NCBI GenBank assembly: GCA_963796455.1
Contig: CAWCLO010000006.1
Coordinates: 96,001-160,000 of the forward strand
Reading direction: 5' to 3'
Source: Candidatus Sulfomarinibacteraceae bacterium
GTDB lineage: Bacteria > Acidobacteriota > Thermoanaerobaculia > Thermoanaerobaculales > Sulfomarinibacteraceae
Length of the DNA: 64,000 nt
In this document: piece by piece, positions 51,744 to 56,543 of the stretch
Position numbering within the stretch: the stretch's first letter is position 1
Layout: every line of letters starts with the position of its first letter
Notes under the pieces: generated by a model
What the model saw: only the letters and a program-made list of their open reading frames with translations
Databases searched by the model: none
What the model was told of the DNA's origin: nothing
Program-made: the position numbers and the translations under genes

Positions 51744-52028
51744 TCAATCCTCGGAGACGCAACAAGACGCTTCGGTCCGGCCGAGCGCCGAATTGATGAC
51801 CGCGGCCGCACACCCGACACCGGCCGAGACGGAAATCGCATCGGACTCGCAGTTGAGGGCACAGGCTCCGCACTCCATGCACGCGTCGCGATCGCTGACC
51901 CTGGCGCCGACATCGTTCATCACAAATACCGCGTGCGGACAAACGAGCACACACACCCCACAACCGATACAACGCCCCTCATCGAGTTCAAGCGTCGTGA
52001 CACCGCGCAGGTAGGTCAAACCGGTCAT
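51744..52028 (-). CDS. hgcB: Mercury methylation ferredoxin
   Basis: Two CxxCxxCxxxC motifs, CMECGACALNC, GVGCA, C-terminal CC; TGATG-coupled to hgcA. Confidence 0.95.
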   Translation of the reverse strand: MTGLTYLRGVTTLELDEGRCIGCGVCVLVCPHAVFVMNDVGARVSDRDACMECGACALNCESDAISVSAGVGCAAAVINSALGRTEASCCVSED

Positions 52029-53164
52029 CAAAGACCCAGCCATTTCGACAGGATCACCAGGCCGACGCCGGCTGCCAGAGCGACGACCTCAATCGGTAAC
52101 GCCAGGCGCATCTCCCGCTTGACGCCCGACGGCGACGTAAAGGTCGAGGCTCCGGTGAAATTCATGGCGACAAAGGCCGCCACGGCGGTTCCGACCATCA
52201 ACCAACCGCTCGCCTCGAAAATCCAGTTGTCGCCCGCCGGTTCGGGCCAACGCGACCAGAGGACAGCTGCCACCAGCGGCAGGCCGACCAGCGCCCCTTT
52301 GAGCGCGAATGGCCGAGGGGGTATCCATGGTAAAAGGGCCGGCACCACCACCGCGCCCGCAACAACTGCGGCGAGCACCACCAGCACCCCGGTGATACCC
52401 TGCTCGAGCGCTCCGGCGACAAATCCTCCCTTGCCGGCGAGCCCACCGAACAACAAAAGAAACGCGATCACGGGGATCGCAATCTTGAGGGCCGCCACCA
52501 ACTCGACCGGGATGACCGCCAAGCGGTCACGAAACCCGAACCGACGACGCCTCATGGACGGCGTCGCCTCCATGCCATTAGCCAGGAAGTCCGGCACGTC
52601 CTCGGCCAGGACGGGCCCCCAGACGACCTCGAATCCGCTTCGTGCGACCACTTCGTGCGCGGCGATGCCGGGCGCACCCAACTGCGGCACGATCAACCGG
52701 CGGTGAACCACCACCCGGCCGAGATCAGCACTCGCAACCCGGCGCACCAGCTCATCCGTGCCGAAGGTTCCCTTGCCCGCCGCGCACCATACATTGACGC
52801 CGGCGGTATCGAGGACGAGGATCCAGACATCGAGTCCTACCGCAGCACTCCTGAGGTGATCGAAGCTGAGTTTGTAATTGGCGGTCACCAGTATTGGAGA
52901 CATGGGATCGGGAGCGCCCAAGGCGTAGAGACCGGGAGGAACTGTGTAGTCCATCCGGCCGACTCCCCAGCGGACTTTGGTCTTTCCCCACCGGTCAGCC
53001 GGACCGAGTTCGCCGCTGACGCGCGGCACAGCACCGGACGCGGTGCCCGTCCACCCCACCACGAAATCCTGGTGGAACGGGTTGTCGGCCTCACGGGCCG
53101 ACGCTCCCGTTCCTCAAGACGGCGGCGGGGCAGGGTTGGCGGTCGACAGATCGGCATCACTCAC
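52028..53164 (-). CDS. hgcA: Mercury methylation corrinoid protein, probable selenoprotein (UGA at 53116-53114)
   Basis: PGLYALG, TANYKLSFD, cap helix GVNVWCAAGKGTFGT, PQLGAPG, C-terminal TM helices, NFTGASTFTSPSGV..EM; frame continues upstream through TGA to GTG 53164. Confidence 0.95.
53074..53113 (-). promoter_or_regulatory. Putative bacterial SECIS element
   Basis: Directly after UGA: GGAACGGG-AGC-GUCGGCC-CGUGA-GGCCGAC-AA-CCCGUUCC. Confidence 0.8.
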
Positions 53165-53293
53165 GCAGTCGATTGTACCTGCGCTTATTCCGCGTTCGCG
53201 CACGTCGGAACTCAGGGAGGCCGGAAGTGAACCGGATGCTGCAGGACCGATCTCAACCGAGCGCGAGCACGAAAAAATCCGTACACTGCTCGC

Positions 53294-53920
53294 ATGATCG
53301 AGATCCTCATCGCAGGAGCCGCATTTGGTCTCAGCGCCGGTCTCTCGCCCGGTCCGATGCTGGCGCTGGTGGTGTCGGAGGCCGCGGCCAAGGGCCGCGC
53401 CGCGGGCCTCGCCATCGCCGCCGCTCCCCTCCTCAGCGACGGTCCGATCATCGCCGCCTCGATTTATCTGCTGGGCCGAGTCGAGGATTCTCAGGCGGCG
53501 CTCGGCATCCTCTCCCTGGTCGGAGGGGGATTGCTTGCGTCCTACGGAATCTCGGGGCTTCGCATCAAGCCTTACAAAATCGATGAAGAGCCTCGTCGTC
53601 TGCAGATCTGGCAGTCACTCGGGAAGGGCGTGGCAGCCAACTTCCTCAATCCGAATCCATACCTCTTCTGGCTGACAATCGGCACCCCGTTACTGCTCCG
53701 CGCAGATGCTGCGAGTCGCCTTGTCGCGGCCCTGTTCCTGGTGCTTTTTTATATTGGACTGGTGGGGTCAAAAGCTGTACTGGCTGTCCTGGTGGCCCGT
53801 TCGAGATCGGTCATCACGGGCCCCGGCTATCTCTGGGTCAACCGGATTCTCGCCCTCGTCCTGCTGGTCTACGCGGCGCTTTTCATCCGCGACGGACTCA
53901 GTCGCCTCATGGGTGTATGA
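53294..53920 (+). CDS. LysE family translocator
   Basis: GLSPGP, D.PII, NFLNP..YLFW. Confidence 0.88.
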   Translation: MIEILIAGAAFGLSAGLSPGPMLALVVSEAAAKGRAAGLAIAAAPLLSDGPIIAASIYLLGRVEDSQAALGILSLVGGGLLASYGISGLRIKPYKIDEEPRRLQIWQSLGKGVAANFLNPNPYLFWLTIGTPLLLRADAASRLVAALFLVLFYIGLVGSKAVLAVLVARSRSVITGPGYLWVNRILALVLLVYAALFIRDGLSRLMGV

Positions 53921-54186: not shown

Positions 54187-56543
54187 CTAAAACTCAAAGC
54201 TCACACCAAATGACGGAATGATCGGCAACCAGTACTCCTCTGGAAAACTCACGACAATATTTTCGAGACTGTCGCCGCGAAAATCCGGATCGGCGATGGC
54301 GATACCGCGGAGATTCTCCCGATTTGTCAGGTTCTGAACATCGATAAAGAAGGTCAGCAGACCCTTTCGACCCAACTTTGACGTCCGGCTGGCCCGGAAA
54401 TCGATGCGGAAATAGTCCTCGAGCGTTTCCTGGTAGAAGGGACCGACATCGTAGGACAGGCTCAGACCACCGTCCGGATCCTGGACCAGATGGGCCTCCA
54501 CCGCGGTCGCCGGCCACCCGGTGTGATAGTTGACCACGCCGGTCAGGCTCCACTTGGGGCCCGGGCGCCAGCTCAGCCCGCCGATCACCGAGTGGGGCTG
54601 ATTCACATAGCGCGGAGTGTCGATGCCGTTCAGTTTGTCCTCGATGGAAGAGAATGCATAGCTGAACCACCAATCCAAGGACCCGCCCTTCCGGCTTGCC
54701 AGATAGACTTCGACTCCGTGAGCACTGACTGACTCGGGCACGATCAGAGCCAGATCGGTCGCGAACTCGGGAACCGGGCTGAAGGGATCGAAGATCGTCT
54801 CCCAGCGCCGGTGGGGCTCACTCACTTCTCTCACATAGGCATCGATCCTGAGTACGATCTCGGATCCGAGATCGGTCTCGAATCCAGCCGTCAGATGCTC
54901 AGCCGTTTGCGCATTCTGAAATTCGGTCTCCCCGAACTGCACCTGGAGTTCGTACGGCCGCTGGGATTGAGAATATCGACCCCACCCGAGACGCAGCATG
55001 GAAGACGAACCGAGGTTGTAGAGCAGGTTGAGACGGGGGCTGATCTGGTCGTCGTCCGTCAGGGTCTGTCTGTCGTAACGAAGCCCCGCTTCAACCGTGA
55101 ATCGATTGCCAAAGCGCAGGCGATCGGAGACGTAGACCCCATATTGCTCGCCATCGTAGGTGTCGTGAAAACTGTCGACACGAACTCCGGGGTAGAAACG
55201 GGGGTCGTCGATCGGATCCTGGATCTGGGCGTTCAGTTCATAGTCGTAGCTGACCTCATAGTGGCGGAGGTCAAAGCCCCAGCGGAGGTAGTTGCGTTCG
55301 CCGATCTCGTGCTGCCAACCCTGCCGAAGACCGTAGAAGCGATCATCTCGAACATCGACCATGTCGAAAAACTCGTCGGGCTCGTCGATGGCCAGAAAAT
55401 CGCGACCGATGGTGATATTGCCGAAATAGAGCGCCGTGTTCACAAAGGACTTTGACGCCGATAACCCCCTGGTGGCCCAGCCACAGGTATTTGCTGGTGT
55501 AGCCGGAATTCACATCCACGTACTCGTCTTCGTCGTCCTCCTCGAACAAGAGGTCGTCGTCCGCATAGAGGACCGCCAAGGAGAACGCATTTTTATTGTT
55601 CGGCGCATAGGCAAGCTTGCCGAAGGCATCCCAATAGCGCGGGTCCGGCGGGTCGCCATCTTCATCGTTGCCGCCGGTCGCTTTCAAGATGAAATCGAGG
55701 TAGCCCCGCCGCGCGGAGGCCAGCCAACTGCCCTTGCCACCCGCAAAGATGCCCCCGGTATTGACCCACGCGGTTGTCAGACTGATCCCGACTCCGGTTC
55801 GGGTCTTCTTCGGCTCGACGGTATCCATGTCGAGAACGGCCGTCATCCGGTCGCCGTATTCTGCGGTGAATCCGCCGGGTGTGAGCTCCATGCCGCCGAT
55901 CATCTCCGGATCCAAAATGCTGAACACACCCTGGAAATCCTTGAGGTGAAAGGGCTCCATTACTTCCTGACCATCGAGGGTCACGAGCATCTCGTCGTAG
56001 AGCCCGCCGCGAACGACGAACCGGGCTGAGAAATCGGAACCCGATGTTCCCGGCAGGACTTGGACCGCACGGAAGAGATCGTCCCCGAAGTGGGGCAGCT
56101 CCCGGATCTGCTGACGATCGAGGGCCACCGCGGCTGCCGGCGCCTCGCGAAGGAGCGAAGCGCTGGCGGTCACAACGATTTCCTTGAGTGGGATCAGCAT
56201 AGCCTGGAGTCGAAAATTGACCTCGGTGGTCTCCCCGCTCGAGACGACGACGTTTTCCAGGCCTTCGCCGATAAAACCAGTGGCCGTTGTTTCGAGCCGG
56301 TGGGAGCCGACCGGAACATCGGTAGAATCGAAATCCACCATTCGCGTCGGTGATCGCGGATTCACCTGTAGTGGTATCGGTCACCAGCGCGGACACCACC
56401 GGCCGCCCTGCCTCATCCACGACGCGGCCCTGAATTGCGCCAACGGCCGAATCGGCCTCCTGGCCCGCCGACACCGTTCCGATTGACAACATCACCAAAG
56501 CCACGGCGGCCAAGGTGCTGCGAACTGTCCGACGATCGTTCAT
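54187..56543 (-). CDS. TonB-dependent receptor with N-terminal carboxypeptidase-regulatory-like domain (two apparent frameshifts, ~56324 and ~55457)
   Basis: Signal peptide, IQGRVVD..G.P, TDANG.F; EIVVTA, LPG, VRGG, GGF.AEYG; SPRL, AEH...G, NLTN..N, terminal F; spread over three consecutive frames. Confidence 0.88.

Follow-up and report, generated by a model that had tools for sequence, protein, structure and literature searches.

The gene hgcA, as called in a 64,000-nucleotide (nt) stretch of a Candidatus Sulfomarinibacteraceae genome (contig CAWCLO010000006.1, positions 96,001 to 160,000; the window in what follows), raises the question of where its protein begins and whether a TGA upstream of the called start is a stop codon at all. 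HgcA is the source of methylmercury, and it is as methylmercury that the metal accumulates in food webs. A first-pass annotation of the window, made from its letters, had proposed that the minus-strand hgcA frame continues upstream through this TGA and that the codon is read as selenocysteine (Sec, U). Following up this proposal, we found that the TGA stands where relatives have Sec or Cys, that a hairpin behind it is conserved along with it, and that the genome encodes the machinery for Sec. The gene is very probably translated from the GTG at 53164 through UGA as Sec, with the hairpin serving as the selenocysteine insertion sequence (SECIS), and its product is thus a predicted selenoprotein.

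The gene is a bona fide hgcA adjoining hgcB. The hgcA core, as called with translation table 11 (52028 to 53062, minus strand; start GTG 53062, stop TGA 52030-52028), scores 429 bits against the NCBIfam equivalog NF040863 (HgcA_corrinoid; cut-off, 275), in a match that spans residues 68 to 397 of protein P0001 and positions 1 to 324 of the 325 in the profile. The core also matches PF03599 and has a corrinoid-binding domain and a transmembrane domain. Its translation contains GVNVWCAAGKGTFG, and the core carries the HgcA cap-helix motif, NVWCAAGK. The ferredoxin gene hgcB (51744 to 52043, minus strand) lies directly downstream and overlaps the end of hgcA; it scores 114.7 bits against NF040864 (HgcB_ferredoxin; cut-off, 99) and matches Fer4 domains. 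The GVGCAAAV site of HgcB has Cys, not Sec, and the protein carries a CC pair at its C terminus.

Upstream of GTG 53062, the minus-strand frame of hgcA extends through a TGA at 53116-53114 to a GTG at 53164-53162, and the sequence matches the first-pass reading of this extension letter for letter. The GTG (53162 to 53164), the putative true start of HgcA, stands 16 codons before the predicted Sec codon, and relatives start 16 to 18 codons before U; an alternative in-frame GTG (53203-53201, minus strand) lies 29 codons before it. The leader codons (53117 to 53161, minus strand) read S D A D L S T A N P A P P P S, the last of them being TCT (Ser, 53119-53117). The TGA itself (53114 to 53116, minus strand) is residue 17 of the extended protein and falls in the Sec column of the family. 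Between it and the start chosen by the open reading frame (ORF) caller lie 17 codons (GTGASAREADNPFHQDF; 53063 to 53113, minus strand), which read G T G A S A R E A D N P F H Q D F, encode the beginning of a conserved D-Q-P-F-V-x-G box, and are followed by GTG 53062. ATG, GTG, and TTG are absent from all 17 of these codons.

The RNA directly after the TGA can fold into a SECIS-like hairpin (53074 to 53113, minus strand). It consists of an 8-bp lower stem, GGAACGGG (53113-53106) with CCCGUUCC (53081-53074); a 3-nt/2-nt internal loop; a 7-bp upper stem, GUCGGCC (53102-53096) with GGCCGAC (53090-53084); and an apical loop, CGUGA (53095-53091), that starts 18 nt after the UGA. The minimum-free-energy (MFE) fold adds six pairs that enclose the UGA (53120-53115 with 53071-53066). 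Over 66 nt the fold has an energy of -35.3 kcal/mol, compared to -21.85 ± 3.39 kcal/mol for dinucleotide shuffles (z = -3.97), none of 200 shuffles being as stable. The 48 nt after the hgcA TGA fold at -29.2 kcal/mol. Equally stable 48-nt folds in the same genome (5.02 Mb) were found at 5 of 6,000 random TGA trinucleotides and at 7 of 6,000 sampled TGA codons that terminate open frames 150 codons or more in length, which places the hgcA hairpin at about the top 0.1% of TGA in the genome. It is also the most stable among 57 folded loci that have a TGA at this site. The 8-bp plus 7-bp geometry and loop position given in the first-pass annotation were confirmed, and the structure is stronger than expected by chance.

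The Escherichia coli fdhF-type SECIS, which is read by SelB, is a stem-loop that lies within the coding sequence, immediately 3' of the UGA, with its apical loop about 16 to 37 nt from the UGA and a G near the 5' side of the loop. The window hairpin is like it in the placement of the stem-loop, the loop distance, and the GU in the loop, and unlike it in sequence, which is unrelated. By the criteria for a bacterial SECIS, the locus has a stable stem-loop, a suitable loop distance, and the loop G.

We then compared the position of the TGA across the HgcA family, using 160 further loci together with their flanking DNA, 80 of them taken from species-representative genomes and the other 80 from metagenome contigs. 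A conserved PGLY anchor in the corrinoid domain placed 158 of the 161 loci, window included; two of the others have no PGLY anchor and one has no NVWCA motif. Counting upstream from PGLY, the first in-frame TGA is 60 codons away in 49 of the 158 loci and 61 codons away in 6; every other distance occurs in 1 to 4 loci. In the window the distance is exactly 60. A TGA stands 58 to 61 codons before the anchor in 59 loci, and after four were judged true stops, 55 Sec-type loci were left. Among 78 non-Sec loci with an open frame, 45 have a Cys 59 to 62 codons before the anchor, with Cys counts peaking at 60 to 62. The TGA of the window thus lines up with Sec in part of the homologues and with Cys in others, as is typical of a Sec codon. 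The arms of the Cys-Cys HgcA extensions are thus homologous to that of the window, with Cys at the column of its U, and differ from it in having no UGA, usually no hairpin, and often several packed Cys residues.

The hairpin tracks the TGA across these loci. When a hairpin was defined as a stem of 5 bp or more without interruption, whose loop has 3 to 7 nt and begins 13 to 23 nt after the codon, one was present in 53 of the 55 Sec-type loci, in 19 of the 81 non-Sec loci at the same position, and in 563 of 2,750 shuffled Sec-type sequences. The count leaves out 25 of the 161 loci: 16 non-Sec loci with a stop or an N in the stretch, 6 with a TGA that was judged a true stop or is followed by another stop, and 3 without the motifs. 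The Fisher P value for this association, 5e-19, overstates it because the loci are kin. The loop starts most often 19 nt after the UGA (36 of 53 loci), and in 5 loci, including the window, it starts after 18 nt. The position of the Sec column and a hairpin some 18 to 19 nt downstream are thus features that the window has in common with the Cys-Sec loci of this set. Its stem of 8 plus 7 bp and its 5-nt CGUGA loop are unlike the common hairpin of the family, which has a stem of 5 to 6 bp and a 4-nt AGKU loop.

Base pairing in the hairpin is also maintained by compensatory change. In an alignment of 28 sequences, the apical helix is 82.1% paired, compared to 75.1 ± 1.5% for column shuffles (0 of 500 reach the observed value) and 26 to 64% for slid partners. 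Five of its six pairs vary on both sides, and one of them is U-A in 15 sequences and C-G in 11. RNAalifold, run on the window and two of its nearest relatives (L032 and L047), gave nine consensus pairs, four with compensatory changes. The window and L032 have the loop CGUGA at the same distance, and a third near relative, L118, has CGGGA there. A check suggested with the first-pass annotation, that relatives should keep both the extension and the hairpin, came out in its favor. The covariation in these alignments shows a predicted structure that is conserved among homologues and tied to the UGA.

In four loci of the family the TGA, 58 to 60 codons from the anchor, is a true stop just before a Met start, and the N termini that follow are rich in Cys (MSDCCC…, MNENCC…). 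One of these loci is titled Treponema (L091), and three are untitled metagenome contigs (L154, L170, and L174). This coincidence of position may be the trace of an earlier Sec site.

The genome (10 contigs, 90.5% complete) encodes the machinery needed to decode UGA as Sec, another point that the first-pass annotation had put forward for checking. A tRNA-Sec scores 76.4 bits against RF01852 and is called by ARAGORN as tRNA-SeC with anticodon tca. The products of selA (475.6 bits; cut-off, 267.9), selB (317.4 bits, or 343.8 bits with a C-terminal piece; cut-off, 242.25), and selD (347.8 bits; cut-off, 125) are likewise encoded, all with scores above their cut-offs.

For other selenoproteins in this genome, we ran two scans that combined an in-frame TGA, a hairpin, and coding signal; both missed hgcA because its upstream ORF is short. 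Of the 16 top candidates from these scans, 13 had no Pfam family, and the only domain that spans a TGA was a sub-threshold kinase match. The latter candidate (L201, G000:C6:180664-181905, outside the window) is a kinase-like frame in which a hairpin of -28.8 kcal/mol follows an in-frame TGA, and given its sub-threshold Pfam match and frameshift-like stretches we rejected it as probably a broken gene and not a selenoprotein gene. Matches to the formate dehydrogenase families TIGR01553 and TIGR01591 in the genome were all below cut-off and lacked a TGA at the classical Sec site. One weak match among them, molybdopterin-oxidoreductase-like (G000:C4:1034299-1034634), contains a single in-frame TGA within an open frame of 562 codons and is a possible second selenoprotein candidate.

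The codons between the TGA and the called start encode residues that are conserved in the family. The N termini of database homologues have in common a box, L/P-x-L-D-Q-P-F-V-x-G, that aligns with N-P-F-H-Q-D-F-V-V-G of the window, where part of it is encoded upstream of 53062. Among 50 translations aligned with read-through of the TGA, residues Q32 and F34 (numbered in the extended protein) were nearly invariant. An AlphaFold2 model built on this 50-sequence alignment had a mean predicted local distance difference test score (pLDDT) of 88.9 and a predicted template modeling score (pTM) of 0.83, with five long C-terminal helices between residues 211 and 375. Residues 1 to 22, the arm with U17, have a pLDDT below 50, and the model thus presents the N-terminal arm that carries Sec as likely disordered. 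For residues 31 to 40 the mean pLDDT is 95, and a confidently modeled stretch thus includes residues whose codons precede the ORF-caller start.

The first-pass annotation had also proposed that the mRNA is leaderless, on the basis of a -10-like hexamer, TACAAT (53172 to 53177, minus strand), that lies 7 nt before GTG 53164 and may be a promoter element. We found the same arrangement in the clade of four HgcA loci to which the window belongs (see below). The start contexts are TACAAT, 7 nt, and GTG, 16 codons before U, in the window; TATATT, 7 nt, and GTG, 18 codons before U, in L118 (596-641); and TATAAT, 7 nt, and ATG, 18 codons before U, in L047 (1519-1564); the fourth member, L032, has a Shine-Dalgarno-like GGAG and an ATG 16 codons before U. 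A -10-like box is therefore present exactly 7 nt before the putative start in three of four clade members. Among the 54 Sec-type loci with enough upstream DNA, 5 have such a box 6 to 8 nt before a start in the hgcA frame, while the other two frames gave 0 and 2. A scan of positions 52950 to 53400 for sigma-70 two-hexamer promoters and terminators found 0 sites, and TACAAT has no -35 partner by that rule. The box and its spacing held up as the annotation had them, and the upstream contexts suggest that the hgcA mRNA of this clade may be leaderless.

The alternative that survives best, which we nevertheless consider improbable, is that the TGA is the true stop of a 16-codon upstream ORF and that HgcA starts at GTG 53062 or at 53059, with an AGGA 4 to 7 nt upstream as its ribosome-binding site. 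On this view the role of the hairpin would be regulatory, for instance in occluding this site. Several observations speak for such a start or otherwise weigh against decoding of the UGA as Sec. The AGGA (53070-53067), 4 nt before GTG 53062, could start a short form, and it could be subject to regulation, since CAGGAU is paired in the MFE fold with bases around the UGA. The match to the NF040863 profile does not set in until residue 68 of P0001, which is downstream of 53062, and a profile of 46 relatives scores the 17-residue stretch between the TGA and 53062 at 3.0 bits, a weak score that 26 of 1,000 shuffles equal or exceed. HgcAB of strain ND132, with an N-terminal His tag, is reported to methylate Hg in E. 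coli lysates (PMC11588087), in an account whose accessible text leaves unstated whether the Sec extension was included. No Rfam model matches the hairpin: a scan of 52950 to 53250 gave only sub-threshold chance matches to microRNA families and DsrA and no SECIS family. A second selenoprotein gene was not found in the genome by our heuristic scans, which are no evidence against Sec use because they are crude and missed hgcA itself. Finally, the window has PSUGT (Ser-Sec-Gly-Thr), with no vicinal thiol, unlike the PCUGP motif reported for other HgcA proteins.

However, a true stop leaves unexplained why an in-frame TGA stands at the exact Sec/Cys column of the relatives and why the hairpin accompanies this TGA in nearly all Sec-type loci and in under a quarter of the others. 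It also leaves unexplained the conserved and confidently modeled Q32 and F34, which are encoded upstream of 53062, and the AGGA is simply part of the Gln-Asp codons of the conserved box. A short HgcA made from 53062 could coexist with Sec read-through as a second, selenium-independent isoform. Decoding of the UGA as Sec accounts for the position of the codon, the hairpin, and the conserved residues together, and we favor it for these reasons.

Selenium in HgcA has a precedent in published work. According to the accessible text of a preprint by Haft (2022, bioRxiv 10.1101/2022.07.06.499078), most HgcA proteins are selenoproteins with an N-terminal Cys-Sec motif. DND132_1056, GSU1440, and 18 short homologues, 20 of 20, were reported there to extend upstream through one UGA, to 363 to 400 residues, with PCUGP perfectly conserved in all 20 and the Sec machinery present; some HgcB proteins were said to carry Sec as well, and the Cys-Sec pair was proposed to interact with a heavy metal. 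A table in a 2026 review (PMC13188914) gives HgcA (NF040863) as a selenoprotein with the motif CU, and a 2024 PNAS article (PMC11588087) says, in the part accessible to us, that HgcA and HgcB could be selenoproteins, citing Haft and Gwadz (J Bacteriol 2023). The first-pass statement that Cys-Sec extensions had been described before is therefore borne out by the preprint. In the literature on HgcA and selenocysteine or selenoproteins, as far as its text was accessible, only CU or CC motifs are mentioned, and the supplementary alignment of the preprint may show others; a literature search for hgcA together with Sulfomarinibacter returned no paper.

The window locus is like the Cys-Sec HgcA of the preprint in belonging to the same family with an hgcB partner, in having a single in-frame UGA in a short N-terminal extension that ORF callers miss, in the presence of Sec machinery, and in a predicted length, 378 residues, that falls within the reported range. 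It is unlike them in its host, which is an acidobacterium where those were Desulfobacterota and Geobacter, in its possibly leaderless mRNA, and in the residue that precedes Sec.

The residue before U is Cys in 44 of the 55 Sec-type loci, Thr in 4 (L032, L033, L065, and L090), Ser in 4 (the window, L092, L132, and L156), and Gly in 3 (L050, L103, and L118). Two of the 11 loci without Cys before U have a Cys directly after it. In the window, Ser (TCT) precedes U and no Cys adjoins U on either side, so that the single Ser-Sec site of the first-pass annotation is confirmed as TCT-TGA. In a FastTree phylogeny of 156 HgcA cores, the window falls in a clade of four with local support 97. The other members are L032 (Thr-Sec; titled Candidatus Sulfomarinibacteraceae; 58% identity), L118 (Gly-Sec; from a metagenome), and L047 (Cys-Sec; titled Acidobacteria). 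Non-Cys residues before U require eight changes on the tree, at least six of them forced by well-supported branches, and a non-Cys residue at this position is for that reason a recurrent, tolerated state. Since 11 of the 55 Sec-type loci lack it, with at least six forced changes, the Cys partner of the Cys-Sec pair is dispensable in several lineages, which is a constraint on models of Hg(II) chelation by a Cys-Sec pair.

The Ser codon could also be read as decay: the Cys partner would have been lost (TGT to TCT, a difference of one base), the extension would no longer function, and the gene would be turning into a pseudogene or a short form. Of 24 other genomes of the genus, all but 2 lack a full-length hgcA, and these 2 have one of another type without the extension, which would fit such a relic. 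We consider this very unlikely. The TGA is retained, the core gene is intact, and the window hairpin is the most stable of those folded. The three nearest relatives keep both TGA and hairpin, two of them also without Cys before U (Thr and Gly), and the repeated changes on the tree fit a tolerated state, not a single decay event.

An error in the letters, with the TGA or the TCT arising in the sequencing or assembly of a metagenome-assembled genome, has next to no likelihood: the assembly does contain frameshifted-looking genes (a TonB receptor at 54187 to 56365 and the kinase-like L201), but Logan contigs from public runs of two studies carry identical letters over 53114 to 53119, and the TGA sits at the Sec column of the family with a SECIS-like hairpin behind it. 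These contigs, X1 (52900 to 53190) and X3 (53016 to 53166), cover both TGA and TCT with no differing letter listed, and because one of the runs may be the source of the window itself, their agreement amounts to at least one, perhaps two, confirmations. In the search for TGC or TGG in place of TGA that had been recommended with the first-pass annotation, the contigs of both runs thus have TGA. For the promoter region (53191 to 53300), no well-matching Logan contig was found; one 151-base record (X2) aligns only at 53213 to 53246, with four gaps and unlike flanks.

The lineage of the host was inferred from rpoB, which is 83 to 89% identical to proteins named Thermoanaerobaculales, Candidatus Sulfomarinibacteraceae, or Acidobacteria and 78% identical to that of Thermoanaerobaculum. 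On the basis of these neighbors the host is a member of the Acidobacteriota and not a deltaproteobacterium, in agreement with the first-pass view that the lineage is a different one. The Sec form of HgcA is thereby extended to Thermoanaerobaculales-type Acidobacteriota.

Within the genus, hgcA is distributed patchily. A full-length HgcA homologue was found in 2 of 24 other genomes (L023 in G007 and L024 in G018; 52 to 54% identity), with short N termini of another type that have neither the D-Q-P-F-V box nor the Sec site. The genus thus holds two unlike types of hgcA, and most members, among these 24 other genomes, have none. No HgcA match was found in 16 genomes of the sister family, and a metagenome scan with the window protein, including window-specific peptides, gave no relative above 55% identity; the closest match in a large protein search was P0003, with 68% identity over a truncated call. 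Lateral acquisition would fit this distribution.

If the UGA is read as Sec, translation would start at GTG 53164, the hairpin would recruit SelB carrying Sec-tRNA(Sec), and the UGA at 53116-53114 would be decoded as Sec. This would yield an HgcA of 378 residues whose flexible N-terminal arm carries a single Sec (Ser-Sec-Gly). Following the proposal of Haft for the Cys-Sec motif, the arm may bind Hg(II), and a lone selenolate might then be sufficient. When selenium is lacking, translation would be expected to end after 16 residues, and HgcA synthesis would be selenium dependent. If selenium does gate HgcA synthesis in this way, selenium availability would be a control on mercury methylation.

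A wider proposal, which we offer as a conjecture with perhaps a minority chance of being right in full, is that this Acidobacteriota clade of HgcA has a lone Sec on a disordered arm, is made from leaderless mRNA, uses one selenolate to capture Hg(II) for the methyl-corrinoid site, and is synthesized only as selenium permits. The Cys pair at the C terminus of HgcB would perhaps help in the transfer of Hg(II). If this proposal is true, methylmercury production in marine and freshwater sediments would be tied to selenium supply.

Sec in HgcA is a phenomenon already present in the literature and in the NCBI reference families, and the locus adds no new principle. What it adds is modest: a lone-Sec (Ser-Sec) variant shared within a clade of Acidobacteriota, a SECIS hairpin of unusual length, and an mRNA that may be leaderless. 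ORF callers still cut hgcA short at the Sec codon, which affects both start-site annotation and hgcA catalogues.

Some further observations concern hgcB and the remainder of the window. The hgcB gene has two candidate ATG starts, one at 52043, which gives a 16-nt overlap with hgcA, and one that shares its A with the hgcA stop (TGATG, 52028). Since the match to the HgcB profile sets in at residue 11 when the longer form is used, the shorter start is plausible, and it would point to translational coupling of hgcA and hgcB. In a Desulfosalsimonas metagenome-assembled genome (L066:1414-2613), the HgcA frame runs past its usual end into an HgcB-like C-terminal tail (…GVGCAAAVINS…SCC…), with the ferredoxin domain skipped; this join may be a fusion, a deletion, or an assembly artifact. 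Upstream of hgcA, a gene for a TonB-dependent receptor (54187 to 56543, minus strand) looks split into overlapping ORFs in different frames, with the Plug domain in 55343 to 56365, the beta-barrel in 54187 to 55443, and a signal-peptide-like start in a third ORF, 55662 to 56543. It is either a frameshifted pseudogene or the product of indel errors in the assembly.

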